Under the pieces are notes generated by a model. That model did not search any database, was not told the DNA's origin, and was given only the letters and a program-made list of their open reading frames with translations. From a virus (lineage: Duplodnaviria > Caudoviricetes), in the IMG/VR virus record IMGVR_UViG_3300029305_002470, positions 22,517-86,516 of that record: 64,000 bases of DNA. One strand, given 5' to 3'. The position numbers and the translations under genes were made by a program. Positions 26,779 to 63,949 of the stretch are shown one piece after another. The first letter of the stretch is position 1, and the number at the start of each line of letters is the position of its first letter.

Positions 26779-27169
26779 TAAGTCGAGCATTTGGCATAAA
26801 AGGAATATAATTATGTTATGGGAACATTATTATAATGATTTGACATTAGATGATTTTATTAAGTTTTATAAGAAAATACAAGTAGAAGAATCACGTTGGT
26901 ATGGAGTTGTAATGACAAATTATTTATATGAATCATTACAGTCTGAATTGGATTTAATTGTTACGTATTCTTTTGATTATTTGGCTAGTTTGTATGGATT
27001 ACATGTTTTAGTATTTGATGAATATTGTAATGCACATAATATACAATGTGCTGTTGTAGATGAGAATACATATTATGCAATGTGCAAAGGTAAAGAATAT
27101 ACGGAAATAGGAAAGGAAATTTCACAGGTTTTAGATAAGGTACAGGATAAAATAAATGAAAGATTATAG
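26768..27169 (+). CDS. Hypothetical protein
   Basis: ORF, start uncertain. Confidence 0.55.
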   Translation: MAYNKSSIWHKRNIIMLWEHYYNDLTLDDFIKFYKKIQVEESRWYGVVMTNYLYESLQSELDLIVTYSFDYLASLYGLHVLVFDEYCNAHNIQCAVVDENTYYAMCKGKEYTEIGKEISQVLDKVQDKINERL

Positions 27170-27422
27170 AAGTAAGGCAGAACAAGCTATAGAAGGCTTG
27201 ATGTTAATAAAAAGAAATGTTAAAGAAAATAGTCATGAAGATTATTATTTAAATTGTGGCATTAAAGCATTGTCTAAAGATATTCCTGCCAAAGTGGAAA
27301 CACATATAGATTTAAGAAGATTTAGTATAGATAGTTTTTGTCCGATGTGTAATAATATGTTGTGTAATGACCGTGATATTAAATATTGTGAAGCATGTGG
27401 ACAAAGATTATATTGGGAGTAA
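27156..27422 (+). CDS. Zn-ribbon hypothetical protein
   Basis: CPMC...YCEACGQRL-W. Confidence 0.65.
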   Translation: MKDYRSKAEQAIEGLMLIKRNVKENSHEDYYLNCGIKALSKDIPAKVETHIDLRRFSIDSFCPMCNNMLCNDRDIKYCEACGQRLYWE

Positions 27423-27627
27423 TTTAGTGGGCAGATTAAATGATGTAACATTAACAGATGAATATATAGATGCTTATGTTAATGATTATGATTTACAAAA
27501 AATATATTTAGTATTAAGGGATATATCTGAAACATTGGCAATGTTTTATGATAATATATATAATAAAGATGAAGAAACTAATGATAGTAATGTAGATAAT
27601 ATGTTAAAGAATTGGAAGTTTCCATGA
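27367..27627 (+). CDS. Hypothetical protein
   Basis: ORF, true start probably downstream of 27367. Confidence 0.4.
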   Translation: MTVILNIVKHVDKDYIGSNLVGRLNDVTLTDEYIDAYVNDYDLQKIYLVLRDISETLAMFYDNIYNKDEETNDSNVDNMLKNWKFP

Positions 27628-27980
27628 TTAATGGAGAGTTTGAAATGCAGTCAATGATAGATATGAATGAATTTATAAATTATGGAACATGTTATGATGT
27701 AGGAGTAATTTATAAAGATTTTAAATGGGCAAATAAAATATATGATATATTATATAATAAATTAAATGCCGCCATATATACTCATCGCAGAAATAGGTAT
27801 TATATGGATATGACATTATGTGGTGGTATAAGATATAGGTTTTTAAAAGCTGATAATAATTTAGCAGGGTATTATTTTAACAGAGTATTTATACAGGGAA
27901 GTGTATCACAGGATTATATAGATGATTATATTAAGCCAACATTGTATCATCAGAGTGATATAGTTGTCATAGATGATTAG
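27624..27980 (+). CDS. Hypothetical protein
   Basis: Last gene before the non-coding island. Confidence 0.55.
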   Translation: MINGEFEMQSMIDMNEFINYGTCYDVGVIYKDFKWANKIYDILYNKLNAAIYTHRRNRYYMDMTLCGGIRYRFLKADNNLAGYYFNRVFIQGSVSQDYIDDYIKPTLYHQSDIVVIDD

Positions 27981-28774
27981 TGTTTGGATGATATGTTACT
28001 CAGAATTTACATAGTTTTTTAACGTAAATGGCGGTAATTTCAAGAGAAAGATGGATTATGATATAGTTGATTGTTTAAATAAATAAAATGTCTTAAAATC
28101 TTGATAGGTCAATATTTTTAATATGGTAAATGAGAAAAACAGTACAAAACGTACTGTTTTTTTATTGTGCTTGTTTTTAGGACATTGAATGTACGGTTTT
28201 TTACTGAATGTATTGTTTTTGGTGGTAAATGTAAAGTTTGTTTTACGTATGTAAAGTATTCTTTACATGGAATAATAGTTTGGAGATTGTGTGGAAAGAG
28301 GGTAGATTAGATGTGGAAATTTTGTAATATACAGGGATATTTAAATGTTGGAAAAGAGTTGGAATTTTAAGGGGTTGAGGGAATTTAGGTATATAGTTTA
28401 TTGCTGGCTGATTCATGTCTGATGACTGGTTTGGTATGGCTTCGAAGAACTTGAAGTTAGTTATCTCTAACTCGTTTGAAAAATACCCCCTCTTGCATAA
28501 AATTTTTGTGAAAAAACACAAAATAAGGGATAAAAAAATAGTGAAAATGATTATTTTCACTAAAATAATATATCATTTTATCGGTCAACTTGATTTTATC
28601 TTTTGTTCAAAATCACAAAAAATCAGCTTATATTGCACTGTTTTTTGTGTATTTTCACAATATAACGTGTTCTAATATGGCGTTGAATTTTGTGGTAAAA
28701 CACAAAAAAATCCTTAAAATTTGTGTAAAATACACAAAAAATATTGTATACATGTGTACCATGCAAGCGTATAA

Positions 28775-28890
28775 ATACAAGTATACTTGTATACAATAGC
28801 GTGTATACTTGTACACACAACACAACAATGTATACAATCAAGTAAATGTATATATGAATACATTCATCTGTATACTTGTATACATATGTA
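28775..28890. promoter_or_regulatory. GntR-family-like operator cluster (GTATACTTGTA x3, TTGTATACAA)
   Basis: 18-bp palindrome ATACAAGTATACTTGTAT at 28775-28792; GTATACTTGTA at 28781, 28803, 28870. Confidence 0.45.
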
Positions 28891-28904
28891 TATATATTCA
28901 TATA

Positions 28905-28931
28905 TTAGCACTCATTCATTGTGAGTGATAA
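28905..28931. promoter_or_regulatory. CIRCE element 1 (HrcA operator, one mismatch)
   Basis: TTAGCACTC-N9-GAGTGATAA. Confidence 0.85.
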
Positions 28932-28937
28932 CAATAA

Positions 28938-28964
28938 TTAGCACTCGTTTATATTGAGTGCTAA
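28938..28964. promoter_or_regulatory. CIRCE element 2 (perfect)
   Basis: TTAGCACTC-GTTTATATT-GAGTGCTAA. Confidence 0.95.
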
Positions 28965-28967
28965 CTA

Positions 28968-28994
28968 TTAGCACTCGTATTCAGTGAGTGCTAA
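28968..28994. promoter_or_regulatory. CIRCE element 3 (perfect)
   Basis: TTAGCACTC-GTATTCAGT-GAGTGCTAA. Confidence 0.95.
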
Positions 28995-29015
28995 TAGTTA
29001 AAAGTTTCACAATAT

Positions 29016-29031
29016 TGTTTCACGTGAAACA
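29016..29031. promoter_or_regulatory. parS site 1 (ParB/Spo0J binding)
   Basis: TGTTTCACGTGAAACA, perfect consensus palindrome. Confidence 0.9.
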
Positions 29032-29062
29032 TAACAAAATATTTTTATCTTTATTGTACCTT

Positions 29063-29078
29063 TGTTTCACGTGAAACA
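29063..29078. promoter_or_regulatory. parS site 2
   Basis: TGTTTCACGTGAAACA. Confidence 0.9.
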
Positions 29079-29585
29079 TTGTACCATTGTACTAATACAT
29101 TAATACAATAATATACATGTTAAAAAAATATCAATATTGTTGCTATACACAAATTATGAATGTTTCACGATATAAATTTTGTATGTTTCACACAAATAGT
29201 AGAATTTTTAACGAGAGTTTTAATAAACTAACTTTTGTGTTTCAGAACAAAAAATTTAAAAATTATTTGTGTATTCAATACAAAATTGATAAATTTTTAA
29301 CGCTATTTTCAGTATAAAAATGAAAAAAACATAAAAAAACAATTGTGTTGTAAACATAAAAAATTTAAAAAAAATTTGTGTAAATACACAAATAAAATAT
29401 AGCATGTCAGCAATACGATTTTATCATATTTTCAGAGCCTCAAAACGTTGAAATTTCAATGCTTCCAGCCTCAAAAATAGCAAAATGTTTTTTCAGTTTC
29501 CTTCATTATAACGCGTGTAAAGCCCTTCTTGAATTGTATTATTGTATTAATACAGTCATACAATAAAGTCGGTTTAAACTGACAA

Positions 29586-29613
29586 TTGACACAACTAAAA
29601 AAATTCTTAAAAT
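29586..29613 (+). promoter_or_regulatory. First early promoter
   Basis: TTGACA-N16-TAAAAT, flanked by two operator palindromes. Confidence 0.6.
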
Positions 29614-29695
29614 GATAATTGCAAGGCGGCAAAAAGTCCGCACATTCTCACATAGTCGGTTTAAACTGACAAATACAGAAAGGAAAGGTTACATT

Positions 29696-30316
29696 ATGAA
29701 AACTACAAACAACGCAAAGGTAAAGGTTACAACTCTTAACGCTCAGACAATTGAAATGCTCAACGTTCAGCTTGATATTATCAAATCAAAAGGTACAACG
29801 TCACTTAATGCTGATATTGCAAGGGCAAAGGCACTCTATACCATTAAAGATGCCGCACTCTATGAGTGCGACAATTGCAAGTCCTTTAAAGAATGGTATA
29901 ACGTAAAACATGACGGTACAATCTATGGTATTACGTACAAATCAGCTTGTATTCTTATCAATACATATGCTAACGTATGGTCACATAAAACATTTAAGGC
30001 ACTGCCTTTATCAATTGCGTGCCGTATGGCGTCAGCTTGCAAAAATGCTGACAATGTAAAAGCATGTGAAAGGCTTGTTGCGGAAGGTAAAATTAAGCCT
30101 GACATGACACAAAACGCCATAAATGATTTACTTAAGGCGGAAGGTATTGTAAAGGCAAAAACTGACAATTTGAGTGCGCCAGCACCAAAAACCGCTGACG
30201 CTGACAATGACACCGTAAAGGTTGCGCTTGCTATGGTCAACGCTTTTATGAAAAGCAATTGCAAGGATGAAACAATAATGGATAATTGGAACGTCATACT
30301 TGATGCGCTTAAGTAA
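29696..30316 (+). CDS. First early gene, hypothetical (weakly DUF3102-like)
   Basis: AGAAAGGAAAGG RBS before ATG 29696; higher GC than neighbours; has its own terminator. Confidence 0.75.
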   Translation: MKTTNNAKVKVTTLNAQTIEMLNVQLDIIKSKGTTSLNADIARAKALYTIKDAALYECDNCKSFKEWYNVKHDGTIYGITYKSACILINTYANVWSHKTFKALPLSIACRMASACKNADNVKACERLVAEGKIKPDMTQNAINDLLKAEGIVKAKTDNLSAPAPKTADADNDTVKVALAMVNAFMKSNCKDETIMDNWNVILDALK

Positions 30317-30330
30317 TTCATACTCACATA

Positions 30331-30368
30331 TGACCGCCGAAAGGCGGTCATTGTTTTTTCTTTTTTTA
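30331..30368 (+). terminator. Intrinsic terminator
   Basis: TGACCGCC-GAAA-GGCGGTCA followed by a T-rich run. Confidence 0.85.
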
Positions 30369-30498
30369 TACGTGCGCATTTTTCTGAATAAAGCGGATAA
30401 AATTTTGCCCACAAAGGGATTTTGCGGAGTCAGTTTAAACTGACAATTAGCAATTAAAAATTGCCGTAAAATAAATTTGCGAGTAAAATTTTGCCCAC

Positions 30499-30527
30499 TT
30501 GACAATAGCAGAAAAATTTTATACTAT
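30499..30527 (+). promoter_or_regulatory. Early sigma-A promoter
   Basis: TTGACA-N17-TACTAT(AAT). Confidence 0.75.
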
Positions 30528-30597
30528 AATAGTGGATATTAAATCCGCCACTCAAAAAGTCAGTTTAAACTGACAGCTTAAGAAAGGAAGTGCTTAA

Positions 30598-30912
30598 ATG
30601 AAAACAAAAATTGCAAGACAGATTCAGTTTAATAAATTTGATAGAATTCACATTGACAAAACTATCGACCTTTTGGTTGATATGTGCAATATTATGCTTG
30701 ATGCGGTTGATGTGGGCGATGAATTTGATTCAATTACAAATATTGATATGTGCGATGCAGATACTGGAGAGGTTATTGCTATGCGCTCAGAGCTTGAAAA
30801 TTGTGCAATGACACTTGCGAACCTTTGGAATTATATAAAAGATAATATTAATGAAGATATTAATATAGAATGTCATGAAGCAGGCAAGATAAAAGTTGAC
30901 AGCATGTTTTAA
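30598..30912 (+). CDS. Early hypothetical protein (acidic)
   Basis: AGAAAGGA RBS. Confidence 0.7.
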   Translation: MKTKIARQIQFNKFDRIHIDKTIDLLVDMCNIMLDAVDVGDEFDSITNIDMCDADTGEVIAMRSELENCAMTLANLWNYIKDNINEDINIECHEAGKIKVDSMF

Positions 30913-30924
30913 TTCTGTTATTAT
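30896..30924 (+). promoter_or_regulatory. Early sigma-A promoter
   Basis: TTGACA-N17-TATTAT with extended TG. Confidence 0.7.
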
Positions 30925-31159
30925 AATGGTGGGCGTGGATTTTGCCCATGCTCACCATTGTTTCAAAATGAATTCAGCAAAAGTCAGTTTAAACTGACAA
31001 TTCAAAATTGAATTCAAAAATCCATCTTAAAAATCGAAATGAGAATTTAAAATGCGCTTTTAAGTTTTGATTTAGATTTTTGAAACTATTTTTGAATTTT
31101 AGTTTTGAAATTCTATTATGAAATTCTAATTTCAGTTTTTAATTTTGCGAGGTGTAATT

Positions 31160-44732: not shown

Positions 44733-45545
44733 ATGAAAACATATTTAGATTTATTTTTAAATGAATATGAAAGTGCAGGAACAAGACGTAATTATAATGG
44801 TACAATTTCCGCCATGCTTAATGCAATCAATAAGGATATAAATAATATTACTAAAATTGACCTTGTTGAATATAAGAATACGTTTAAAAATTTGGCGGCG
44901 AGTACACAGGCGCAAAAAATTATTTGTATTAAATCTTATTTTAAATTTCTTTTTGATAATGATGTTATAGAATCTAATCCTGCTGAGAAATTATCCACGC
45001 CAAGAGTGGAGCATAAACCAAAAGATGCACTTACTACTGATGAGGCAATTATGTTAATGCATTATGGCAACAAAAGAGAACGTGCAATTATAGCAACATT
45101 TTTAAATACTGGTATTAGAGTGCAGGAATTAATAGATATAAAATTTGTAGATTATATAAAAGAACCAAGTAAAATGGTTTTAAAAACTAAGAGAGGTAAG
45201 TATCGTACTGTTTATTTAAATGATGATACAATCAAACTTATAAATGAATATCTTAAAGTACGTAAGGAAGGATGTGATAATCTTTTTGTAAGCAATCAGG
45301 GAACTCCATTATCAGAATATAGTTTAAATAACACATGGAAAAAGTTAGCAACTAAAGCTGGGATTGATAAACATATTACCAATCATAGTTTTAGGTCTAC
45401 ATTTGTAACCACTATTGCAAGAGAACACGGCATACTTATGGCACAGATGGCAGTTAATCATGCTAATATTGCGACCACAAGAATATATGTGCGTGGTATG
45501 GAAGATGAAGTTGAAGCTGTAGTTAGAGGTTTGAAAGTATGTTAG
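44733..45545 (+). CDS. Tyrosine recombinase (XerC/D-like)
   Basis: Complete catalytic set: TGIR, KTKRGK, HSFR, NH, TRIY. Confidence 0.92.
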   Translation: MKTYLDLFLNEYESAGTRRNYNGTISAMLNAINKDINNITKIDLVEYKNTFKNLAASTQAQKIICIKSYFKFLFDNDVIESNPAEKLSTPRVEHKPKDALTTDEAIMLMHYGNKRERAIIATFLNTGIRVQELIDIKFVDYIKEPSKMVLKTKRGKYRTVYLNDDTIKLINEYLKVRKEGCDNLFVSNQGTPLSEYSLNNTWKKLATKAGIDKHITNHSFRSTFVTTIAREHGILMAQMAVNHANIATTRIYVRGMEDEVEAVVRGLKVC

Positions 45546-62150: not shown

Positions 62151-62224
62151 TGGGGTATAGCGTAATGGTAGCGCAAGGGACTTTGACTCCCTATGTCTGT
62201 GTTCAACTCACAGTACCCCAGCCA
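62151..62224 (+). tRNA. tRNA-Gln(UUG)
   Basis: Cloverleaf, AGGGA-CTTTGAC-TCCCT, CCA end. Confidence 0.9.
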
Positions 62225-62263
62225 CATGGTAGCATAGCTCAGTTGGTAGAGCGGGTGGCTGTT

Positions 62264-62731
62264 TACTTGACCTTACTAAGTTTAATTAAAAAAACAAATG
62301 GATAGTAAACAAAAAGGAAATATTACTGAACTTGAAACAATGTTAGCTTTTTTAAAATTAGGTTATAATGTTTTAATTCCTTATGGAGATTGTGAACGTT
62401 ATGATTATGTTGTAGATGTAAAAGGTAATTTTATTCGAGTTCAAAGTAAAACATCACATTCTGATGATGAGGGAGCTTCTTTTAAATTTGGTGGAAGAAG
62501 CTGTAATCGAAAAGATGGTAAAATTATTCATCATCAGTATACTAAAGACGAAATTGATTATTTTGCAACAACATTTAATGGAAAATATTATTTAATTCCT
62601 GTGGAAGAATGTGGAGCAAATAAGAGACTTCGTATTCTTCCAACAAAAAATGGACAAGCTAAAGATATTACTTGGGCTAAAGATTATGAATTGGATGAGG
62701 TAGTTAAAACTTGGTAAGTTGATGTGTAAGC
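62264..62731 (+). mobile_element. Anticodon-loop insertion / intron encoding an endonuclease, no group I core
   Basis: Only 34 nt before and 14 nt after the ORF; the two insert ends base-pair with each other. Confidence 0.8.
62298..62717 (+). CDS. PD-(D/E)XK endonuclease (group I intron-associated, I-Ssp6803I-like family)
   Basis: KG-I-E------LK-GY-V--P-GD--RYD-VVD------RVQ-K...Y----IDYFA. Confidence 0.82.
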   Translation: MDSKQKGNITELETMLAFLKLGYNVLIPYGDCERYDYVVDVKGNFIRVQSKTSHSDDEGASFKFGGRSCNRKDGKIIHHQYTKDEIDYFATTFNGKYYLIPVEECGANKRLRILPTKNGQAKDITWAKDYELDEVVKTW

Positions 62732-62771
62732 AACCACTGTGTCCTAGGTTCGAGTCCTAGTGTTACCGCCA

Positions 62772-63045
62772 AAGACAGTTGATACTGTCTTGCAAATATT
62801 ATAAACAACAATGTAAATTAAAGTGGATGTTAACTTAAACTTTAAAGAGAAACGCTTGACGACCCAAGTTGGTTAAATCTCGGTAGCCAATACAACAGTA
62901 GCGCATAGTACAAAAATTTCGACTATATAGCCGCAAGTCGTGGAAGAAAAATTTCGAAGTTGTTTATAACTATTAACGTCCAGTCTAGCTCAAGACGTAA
63001 AATTATTCTTGATAATACTTGAAGGCTAGTAGAGAGTATTATCAA
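62772..63045 (+). ncRNA. Unassigned structured RNA within the tRNA array
   Basis: Long-range stem TTATAAACAAC/GTTGTTTATAA (62799-62809 with 62959-62969) and two further hairpins with complementary loops. Confidence 0.4.
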
Positions 63046-63049
63046 TTAT

Positions 63050-63126
63050 TGCGGAGTGGTAGCAGTGGTTAGCTCGTCAGGCTCATAACCTGAAGGTCAT
63101 AAGTTCGAATCTTATCTCCGCAACCA
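63050..63126 (+). tRNA. tRNA-Met(CAU), initiator-like
   Basis: TCAGG-CTCATAA-CCTGA, CCA end. Confidence 0.88.
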
Positions 63127-63131
63127 ATTAT

Positions 63132-63208
63132 GCACAGGTAGTTCAGTAGGTTAGAGCAGTCGTCTTATAAGCGACTTGTCGTTGGTTCAAGTCCAACCCT
63201 GTGTACCA
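63132..63208 (+). tRNA. tRNA-Ile(UAU)
   Basis: GTCGT-CTTATAA-GCGAC, CCA end. Confidence 0.88.
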
Positions 63209-63212
63209 ATAT

Positions 63213-63289
63213 GCTCCTGTAGACCAATTGGCAGAGTCATCCGATTTAAGCTCGGAACAGTGTGGGTTCGAATCCCACTAGGAGTACCA
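63213..63289 (+). tRNA. tRNA-Leu(UAA), short variable loop
   Basis: TCCGA-TTTAAGC-TCGGA, CCA end. Confidence 0.85.
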
Positions 63290-63294
63290 ATTAT

Positions 63295-63369
63295 TGGCGA
63301 GTAGTCCAATGGCAGAGACTAGGGTCGCTACCGAATAGTAACAAGTTCGAATCTTGTTCTCGCCAACCA
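63295..63369 (+). tRNA. tRNA-like gene with an aberrant anticodon arm (undetermined)
   Basis: Acceptor TGGCGAG/CTCGCCA, D and T arms and CCA are intact; the anticodon stem does not form canonically. Confidence 0.6.
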
Positions 63370-63372
63370 TAT

Positions 63373-63449
63373 GGGTTACTATCCCAATCGGCAGAGGAAG
63401 TAGGCTCAAACCCTATAAAGTCTGGGTTCGAATCCCAGGTGACCCACCA
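63373..63449 (+). tRNA. tRNA-Leu(CAA), short variable loop
   Basis: GTAGG-CTCAAAC-CCTAT, CCA end. Confidence 0.85.
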
Positions 63450-63453
63450 ATAT

Positions 63454-63528
63454 GTTCAGATAGCTCAGTGGTAGAGCGTTGGGTTGAAGCCCCATGCGTC
63501 ATAGGTTCAAATCCTATTCTGAACACCA
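63454..63528 (+). tRNA. tRNA-Phe(GAA)
   Basis: TGGG-TTGAAGC-CCCA, CCA end. Confidence 0.88.
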
Positions 63529-63531
63529 TCA

Positions 63532-63614
63532 AAGCCACATACAGCAAATTTAAATGTATGGTTACAAATTTTGCTTTGAAAACAAATTAATGGGTTCAAT
63601 TCCCAATGTGGCTT
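63532..63614 (+). ncRNA. tRNA-like element (pseudo-tRNA)
   Basis: AAGCCACAT/ATGTGGCTT stem, ACAGCAA in place of a D arm, T-like arm TGGG-TTCAATT-CCCA; no CCA. Confidence 0.5.
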
Positions 63615-63620
63615 GTTTAT

Positions 63621-63697
63621 GCACCCTTAGTTCATTAGGTTAGAACGCTGTGCTGATAACGCAGAGGTGCTTGGTTCAAATCCAAGAGGGTGTACCA
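63621..63697 (+). tRNA. tRNA-Ile(GAU)
   Basis: CTGTG-CTGATAA-CGCAG, CCA end. Confidence 0.9.
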
Positions 63698-63701
63698 ATG
63701 T

Positions 63702-63776
63702 GTGGGTTATAGTCTAATGGTAAGACGCAAGATTGTGGCTCTTGTCATCTGAGTTCGATTCTCAGTAATCCACCCA
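63702..63776 (+). tRNA. tRNA-His(GUG)
   Basis: CAAGA-TTGTGGC-TCTTG, G-1:C73, CCA end. Confidence 0.9.
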
Positions 63777-63795
63777 ATCTAATTAATTAGACTAT

Positions 63796-63869
63796 GTGGG
63801 TGTAAGCTAAAGGAAAACGGTATGCTTTGGGAGCATACATTGTGAGTTCGAGTCTCACCTCCCGCACCA
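63796..63869 (+). tRNA. tRNA-Pro(UGG)
   Basis: TATGC-TTTGGGA-GCATA, CCA end; one acceptor mismatch. Confidence 0.82.
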
Positions 63870-63873
63870 ATAT

Positions 63874-63949
63874 GGGGCTATAGCTCAGTTGGGAGAGCAC
63901 ATGCCTTGCACGCATGGGGTCGAGGGTTCAAGTCCCTCTAGCTCCACCA
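63874..63949 (+). tRNA. tRNA-Ala(UGC)
   Basis: GGGGCTA acceptor with G3:U70, CATGC-CTTGCAC-GCATG, CCA end. Confidence 0.92.

Follow-up and report, generated by a model that had tools for sequence, protein, structure and literature searches.

CIRCE is the operator of HrcA, the heat-shock repressor that controls groESL and dnaK in Firmicutes. In Bacillota, as in many other bacterial groups, the groESL and hrcA-grpE-dnaK operons form the class I heat-shock regulon, and one or two CIRCE usually lie at the groESL and dnaK promoters. HrcA is the master repressor of the chaperone machinery, and many phages need chaperones for capsid folding. When we surveyed one genome from each of 185,579 prokaryote species for two perfect CIRCE within 30 bp, 22 contigs carried two tandem copies and none carried three. 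These bacterial tandems have a pitch of 29-53 bp, mostly 31-35 bp, and for 14 of the 22 pairs the distance to groES or clpB is 16-93 nt, the usual place being immediately upstream of groES.

Sites for several other host regulators are known on phage DNA. The virulent Bacillus phages phi29 and Nf carry boxes for host Spo0A and parS sites (PMC2731898), host LexA is the prophage repressor of GIL01 (PMC4551915), and phages of Alphaproteobacteria carry CtrA sites (PMC9437464). In T5, the injection-stop (iss) region, 1.66 kb of untranslated DNA beside the pre-early genes, contains many palindromes and eight DnaA boxes (bioRxiv 10.1101/866236). Precedents for decoys are synthetic arrays in yeast (PMC3322331) and the titration of DnaA by chromosomal sites in E. 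coli (PMC12371093). Full-text literature searches returned no paper on CIRCE/HrcA sites on phage genomes and none on phage DNA arrays that titrate host regulators. The predicted HrcA sites described here would thus be a new addition to borrowed operator sites, among which they have not been reported, and their use for sequestration, if true, would be categorically new.

The locus shares features with these systems and differs from each. As in phi29 and Nf, a phage without the cognate genes has consensus sites for host proteins, including parS for Spo0J/ParB, and the sites are conserved within a phage group while their numbers vary between relatives. Unlike the 0A boxes of those phages, which act as operators at promoters or origins, the predicted HrcA sites form a promoter-less array in a gene-free island. 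As in GIL01 and the CtrA phages, a host stress or cell-cycle regulator may be read through cis sites, and LexA boxes occur in the islands of relatives, some overlapping the -35 of a promoter-like element. However, the sites in GIL01 and the CtrA phages overlap phage promoters, and the 5-8 LexA boxes and 3-6 CIRCE found in this lineage surpass what an operator needs.

A CIRCE array in a gene-free island

We analysed a window of 64,000 nucleotides, which is the stretch 22517-86516 of the 86,516-bp IMG/VR record IMGVR_UViG_3300029305_002470; coordinates of this phage are those of the window. The record is linear, 71% complete by CheckV and about 29% GC. The phage encodes a DnaE-type polymerase, a DnaB-like helicase, a primase, a Sak4-like protein, NrdD and ThyX, and further an RNA ligase, DNA methylases and a portal protein. 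The DnaE proteins most similar to its own occur in Clostridioides phage pCD1602_4 (51%), in Bacillus PBC2-like phages (46%) and in Thomasclavelia phages (41%), and the metagenomes that contain the sequence come from animal gut and faeces, mostly of ruminants. Because of the GC content, the DnaE relatives and the gut habitat, the host is probably a low-GC gut member of the Bacillota. The features considered here are as follows.

27981-29695, no strand: gene-free island of 1.7 kb, between an accessory gene block and the first early gene
28133-28163, plus strand: intrinsic-terminator-like hairpin (13-bp stem, T run) that ends the upstream gene block; also present in the relative L132
28476-28503, plus strand: promoter-like element TTGAAA-16-TAAAAT with a conserved AATACCCCC spacer, aimed rightward at the array
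28506-29391, no strand: TTGTG-N6-CACAA palindromes, four perfect (starts 28506, 28645, 28690 and 29376) plus variants
28746-28884, no strand: cluster of GTATAC(TT)GTATAC palindromes, adjoining the CIRCE array on its upstream side
28905-28931, no strand: CIRCE copy 1, TTAGCACTC-N9-GAGTGATAA, one mismatch (C24A, right arm)
28938-28964, no strand: CIRCE copy 2, TTAGCACTC-N9-GAGTGCTAA, perfect consensus
28968-28994, no strand: CIRCE copy 3, TTAGCACTC-N9-GAGTGCTAA, perfect consensus
29016-29031, no strand: parS copy 1, perfect TGTTTCACGTGAAACA, 21 bp past the last CIRCE
29063-29078, no strand: parS copy 2, perfect, chromosomal-type TGTTTCACGTGAAACA
29568 and 29655: 16-mer palindrome GTCGGTTTAAACTGAC, on both sides of the first early promoter
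29586-29613, plus strand: first early promoter, TTGACA-16-TAAAAT (11/12), 592 bp downstream of the array
29696-30316, plus strand: first early gene, 206 aa, no family; weak homologue of the post-island gene of L132 (24% identity, E 1e-6)
44733-45545: XerC/D-like tyrosine recombinase, 270 aa, at the head of the replication module
62151-63949: ten tRNA genes (Gln, Met, Ile x2, Leu x2, Phe, His, Pro, Ala)

In left-to-right order, the elements of the island are a G/T-rich tract, the promoter-like element, TTGTG-N6-CACAA, the GTATAC cluster and the three CIRCE, followed by the two parS, further repeats and the 16-mer palindrome. The original prediction of three CIRCE within 90 bp, two perfect and one with a single mismatch, was confirmed by pattern search. 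Dinucleotide-preserving shuffles gave a mean of 0.01 matches, and three or more occurred in 0 of 100. The elements are separated by 6 and 3 bp (33 and 30 bp from start to start), and their three N9 spacers all differ. No other CIRCE with up to three mismatches was present elsewhere in the whole 86,516-bp record.

The array lies outside the class I heat-shock operon setting, with neither a chaperone gene nor an adjacent promoter. groE, dnaK and hrcA had been noted as absent from the window, and this held for the full record: six-frame family searches detected no HrcA, Cpn10, Cpn60, HSP70, HSP20 or DnaJ in the 71% of the genome that it is estimated by CheckV to cover. The gene nearest to the array is 700 bp away, belongs to no family and is not a chaperone gene. 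Compared with bacterial CIRCE/HrcA operators, the phage elements have the same 9-bp arms and 9-bp spacer and the 30-35 bp pitch of double operators. They differ in number (three to six copies versus at most two), in adjoining no chaperone gene or promoter and in the distance of over 590 bp that separates the array from the nearest strong promoter. The nearest clear promoter had been placed about 600 bp away; this stood for the best sigma-A-like promoter, 592 bp downstream, while the promoter-like element 400 bp upstream of the array had been missed.

The other palindromes of the island and of the early region are probably read by phage proteins. All perfect TTGTG-N6-CACAA copies in the record lie inside the island. 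We rejected this palindrome as a Rex or CRP site, as the spacing does not fit, and as a DnaA site, as there are just two relaxed DnaA boxes within the island. A CopY/BlaI-type assignment for GTATAC was considered and not kept. The 16-mer palindrome (GTCRGTTTAAACTGAC) has nine copies between 29568 and 38545, exclusively at early intergenic positions, and probably serves either as an early operator of the phage itself or as an RNA hairpin. An Rfam scan gave sub-threshold matches to microRNA-like hairpins alone, which are meaningless here. Open reading frames within the island (e.g., 28243-28560, minus strand) were rejected as genes, since they are not conserved in L132 and have no family hits. 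A search of IMG/VR for relatives of the first early protein gave none. At the parS pair, metagenome-run depth rose to about 250, where contigs of other organisms match both sites and the spacer between them.

Conservation at the locus among syntenic relatives

We identified relatives through the HD-phosphohydrolase gene 2 kb upstream of the array, by a metagenome scan, and through an early gene 2 kb downstream, and confirmed them by multi-gene synteny. CIRCE were counted with up to two mismatches, DnaA boxes as perfect boxes and LexA sites as core boxes; the DnaA, LexA and parS assignments are exact consensus matches. The original prediction had proposed scanning related phages for CIRCE at this locus, and the scan was positive: five of the seven syntenic relatives have CIRCE in the same island, in one to six copies and, in four of them, as arrays. 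The counts were as follows.

This phage: CIRCE 3, parS 2, DnaA 0, LexA 0
L132: CIRCE 6, parS 1, DnaA 5, LexA 5 (7-8 with variants)
L133 (contig ends at a parS-like site): CIRCE 3, DnaA 0, LexA 0
L242/L243: CIRCE 3, parS 1, DnaA 0, LexA 1
L246: CIRCE 2, parS 1, DnaA 3, LexA 1
L241 (also about 14 iteron-like repeats): CIRCE 1 (degenerate), parS 1, DnaA 1, LexA 0
L244: CIRCE 0, parS 0, DnaA 0, LexA 0
L247: CIRCE 0, parS 0, DnaA 0, LexA 2

The flanking proteins of the CIRCE-bearing relatives are only 24-83% identical to those of this phage. In L132, the island is bracketed by homologues of the HD protein (60%), the first early protein (24%) and later early proteins (44-70%). Outside the CIRCE, the islands could be aligned in patches only, at 69-76% identity, and the order of the modules is shuffled between relatives. 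Since L244 and L247 lack CIRCE, the element is an accessory module of the island. As background, we took 1.19 Mb of DNA flanking homologues of this HD gene in 80 phages that are not related to this one, and it contained no CIRCE and no parS. These 80 IMG/VR loci, found with an HD-protein profile, were rejected as relatives, as they share one gene only, and were kept as this control.

Pairwise identity among the 18 CIRCE copies of the lineage averaged 93% for the arms and 40% for the spacers. Conserved arms with differing N9 spacers, as originally noted for the three copies of this phage, were thus borne out across the lineage. The spacer is 9 bp long in all 18 copies, with no 7-, 8-, 10- or 11-bp variants in the islands, and the pitch within arrays is 30, 33 or 35 bp. 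Seven of the copies are perfect and 11 have one or two mismatches. Arm positions match the consensus in 312 of 324 cases, and none of the 12 deviations is compensated on the partner arm. Because deviations are uncompensated and arms are conserved relative to spacers, selection acts on the arm sequence, as for a protein-binding site, and not on a hairpin. Related phages without the regulator gene have kept consensus sites for a host regulator. Based on the match to the 18 bases of a near-universal operator and on this pattern of selection, host HrcA very probably binds the sites.

The same data bear on whether the elements could be CIRCE look-alikes, namely sites for a phage-encoded binder, DNA or RNA hairpins, or a neutral remnant of captured host promoter DNA. 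Consistent with such an origin, the island is full of other palindromes (TTGTG-N6-CACAA, GTATAC, the 16-mer), and each CIRCE copy is able to form a 9-bp hairpin. However, all 18 specified bases of the operator are matched, with seven perfect copies in the lineage, and a hairpin is difficult to reconcile with arm deviations that are never compensated. Six-frame searches of the record found no HrcA-like gene that could encode a binder, a neutral remnant is excluded by the conservation of arms over spacers in a poorly alignable island, and the perfect parS, DnaA and LexA consensus sites alongside point to host proteins. We therefore consider look-alikes very unlikely.

Megablast of 27000-31000 against INPHARED phages gave no match. 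DnaE relatives told us little: the five in that collection (pCD1602_4, PBC2, TR-TP1, LIBA6276 and MT835481) contain no CIRCE. None of five IMG/VR DnaE matches carries CIRCE either: the three at 82-85% identity and the one at 62% are fragments of less than 20 kb, too short to reach the island, while the one at 53% is a complete, CIRCE-free phage of 151 kb. Contigs over the island from the DNA runs X2, X3 and X5 were identical; as these runs contain the same strain, they are uninformative on conservation. The RNA run X22, which contains only a relative of about 95% identity, covers only 27900-28568 and 29144-29261, and the array lies outside the covered part.

Further site clusters were evident in the relatives' islands. 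The gene-free island of L132 contains five perfect DnaA boxes in 77 bp (L132:4113-4190) and, upstream of the first early promoter, a stretch of about 270 bp with seven or eight LexA boxes of the Firmicute (Cheo) type (L132:4330-4600). In L241 (3800-4260), about 14 iteron-like ACCAAGTGGTTAA repeats surround a perfect parS and adjoin a cluster of DnaA-type boxes (TTTTCCACA / TTATCCACA); this stretch is a probable replication origin.

Could the island be a replication, partition or DNA-entry region in which HrcA, ParB and DnaA are nucleoprotein bricks? It would then provide an origin with a centromere that maintains the phage like a plasmid, or act in DNA entry as a T5-like injection-stop or handle, and HrcA would serve as a DNA-binding brick whose regulatory meaning is unused. 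The 21-bp gap between CIRCE and parS, found both here and in L132, fits this idea, as do the perfect DnaA box clusters of L132 and L246, the ACCAAGTGGTTAA iterons with DnaA-type boxes of L241 and the contigs of several relatives that break inside the island. The island also resembles the T5 injection-stop region (bioRxiv 10.1101/866236): both are large conserved non-coding regions by the earliest genes, with repeats and host boxes, including DnaA boxes in L132, L246 and L241. The comparison is between different host phyla and protein sets, the T5 model is itself a hypothesis, and the record analysed here is linear and 71% complete. Moreover, strict DnaA boxes are missing from the island of this phage, family searches of the record gave neither a ParB_N nor a Rep gene, and module order is not conserved. 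Two relatives lack CIRCE and two lack parS, so neither is core to an essential origin or packaging site. An architectural role is therefore unlikely.

Possible sequestration or sensing of HrcA

The promoter-like element upstream of the array is conserved. TTGA[AC]AAATACCC[CT]C followed by an A-rich -10-like hexamer was found in eight lineage contigs, with counterparts of the element at L132:3505, L242:5067, L246:3660, L241:3472, L244:3679, L247:1088 and L130:6554. The -35 of the element is overlapped in L242, L246 and L247 by a LexA-type box that resembles CGAACGTATGTTTG, with variation at one or two bases, and the element may be an SOS-controlled promoter reading into the island. As this conserved element faces rightward 400 bp upstream, the array may lie inside a transcription unit.

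These observations raise the possibility that array-bound HrcA stops or weakens transcription of the phage, for example as a roadblock to transcription from 28476-28503 or by repressing the first early promoter at long range. Release of early expression or replication would follow once HrcA is inactive, which would report that GroEL is busy (heat, proteotoxic stress) or that infection is late. Together with the relatives' LexA boxes, the island would then be a stress-sensing switch of a temperate or plasmid-like phage. The promoter-like element faces the array in the eight contigs, three of them with the LexA-type box over the -35, and no terminator was predicted between it and the early genes. 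A roadblock is independent of position, so the shuffled module order is compatible with it. A non-lytic state is also possible, given the XerC/D-like recombinase, which would fit either integration or the resolving of dimers of a circular, plasmid-like form, and the DnaE relatives, which we take to include phages known as plasmid prophages.

Other features are not those expected of a sensor. No promoter lies within or adjoins the lineage arrays (none adjoins CIRCE in this phage, L132 or L133), and the two promoters are 400 bp and 590 bp away. Five to six tandem copies are excessive, as one or two suffice for known operators, and the near-consensus early promoters have their own repeated 16-mer palindrome, which is the likelier operator. 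Precedent, however, lies with sensing: the documented host-regulator sites on phage DNA, namely the Spo0A boxes of phi29 (PMC2731898), the LexA sites of GIL01 (PMC4551915) and the CtrA sites (PMC9437464), are all sensors or operators, which also counts against a decoy. We regard a sensor or gate as a tentative possibility.

The reading that we prefer is that the array works by occupancy, as a decoy that sequesters HrcA (probability about 0.4). In this model, the phage lineage keeps by selection a tandem CIRCE array that has no promoter and no gene. The island would be a mosaic docking place for host DNA-binding proteins, with ParB/parS here and DnaA and LexA boxes in relatives. As phage DNA replicates, its CIRCE sites, three per genome, would come to outnumber the few operators of the host. 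This surplus of predicted high-affinity sites would sequester HrcA, and the host groESL and hrcA-grpE-dnaK operons would be derepressed at about the time when capsid proteins need folding. We infer each part of this model, namely HrcA binding, a host HrcA, titration and a benefit to the phage, from the DNA sequence.

Occupancy is favoured over operator geometry because the copy number varies from 0 to 6 and exceeds that of bacteria, no promoter or gene is adjacent and the order is shuffled. Variable copy number and order are as expected of a position-independent, dosage-type element. The locus has what a decoy array would have: tandem sites of predicted high affinity, no target in cis, a copy number of 0-6 and a shuffled order. 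As in the synthetic yeast decoys and the titration of DnaA, tandem high-affinity sites without a target gene would sequester a DNA-binding protein, although those systems are cellular or synthetic and not viral. The islands of relatives also hold further promoter-less arrays of perfect consensus sites, such as the five DnaA boxes in 77 bp and the 5-8 LexA boxes of L132. The very low background of CIRCE around the HD gene in unrelated phages, and chaperone-less CIRCE arrays in large phages of distant lineages, also speak for this reading.

Some findings weigh against sequestration or would limit its effect. Unlike maximal-affinity decoys, 11 of the 18 lineage copies have mismatches. As hrcA is autoregulated, titration would be partly buffered, and as L244 and L247 have no CIRCE, any benefit would be conditional. 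Thus, the original proposal of a chaperone-less decoy survives in part. Operator-grade CIRCE without a chaperone target are conserved at the locus, but a sensor, the alternative that the original proposal also gave, is nearly as likely an explanation.

A broader and tentative version of the decoy model is that the island is a sponge for several host regulators (HrcA, LexA, DnaA and ParB, with Rex-like sites in other lineages). Replication of the phage DNA would then induce chaperones and the SOS response and would interfere with the way the host replicates and segregates its DNA, with CIRCE as the heat-shock module. Such islands might be a protein-free host-takeover device of large gut-Bacillota phages.

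Whether HrcA is sequestered or sensed, the array suggests one of two things: a protein-free way of raising host chaperones, or the use of protein-folding stress as an input to phage decisions. Mosaic islands of CIRCE, parS, DnaA and LexA sites recur in several distantly related large gut phages, and this recurrence suggests an overlooked layer of interaction with host regulators in non-coding phage DNA. This is relevant to annotating phage dark matter and to predicting phage behaviour in gut and rumen communities.

CIRCE in other IMG/VR contigs

At least 113 IMG/VR contigs carry a perfect CIRCE. In about 45 of them, the site has a gene for Hsp20, GroES/GroEL, HtpG, ClpB or HrcA as its neighbour; such cases are fragments of host DNA, plasmid-like replicons or chaperones carried by phages. 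A subset comes from distant large phages (DnaE 24-31% identical where detectable), in which chaperone-less CIRCE lie in palindrome-rich intergenic islands. Phage use of CIRCE is thus heterogeneous, and the phage described here is one of those whose CIRCE form an array in a gene-free island.

The arrangements in this subset vary. L059 (5375-5548) has four CIRCE, three of them perfect, with an exact 49-bp period and interleaved with GTTAGA-N4-TCTAAC palindromes. The related phage L020 has one CIRCE at the same place, after a GTATAC cluster. In L059, the CIRCE are about 40 bp upstream of a strong promoter, and the range for the L020/L059 lineage is 40-55 bp. In the complete 167-kb phage L013 (11790-12156), one perfect CIRCE lies between a promoter-like site and an RBS, with the look of a classical operator. 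The gene behind it, a 105-aa ORF without a Pfam family, is a candidate for a phage gene under HrcA control and may encode a co-chaperone that has gone unrecognised. The placement of CIRCE next to promoters in L059, L020 and L013 is operator-like; it agrees with a sensor and counts against a decoy.

Two to three CIRCE lie at the head of a gene block in the 176-kb phage L067 (4700-5250) and the related contig L098 (9460-10260), accompanied by four to nine copies of TTGTGAA-N4-TTCACAA, the Rex-box consensus, and by AGTTAGTCTAAACTAACT palindromes. Two chaperone-less CIRCE occur in L004 and another two in L037, where their neighbours are GTATAC motifs and a perfect parS. In L024, one CIRCE directly follows three LexA-like boxes. 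A GTATAC cluster also lies directly 5′ of CIRCE at L133:14900-15040, L246:4016-4190, L020:10070-10220 and L037:10100-10230, and the two elements are thus neighbours in several lineages that are only distantly related.

A rolling-circle Rep (PF23343) is encoded on L011, L019, L025, L038, L050, L060, L063, L077 and L095, IMG/VR contigs of about 5-7 kb that look like small plasmids rather than viruses. Most of these Rep contigs also carry an Hsp20 gene preceded by CIRCE.
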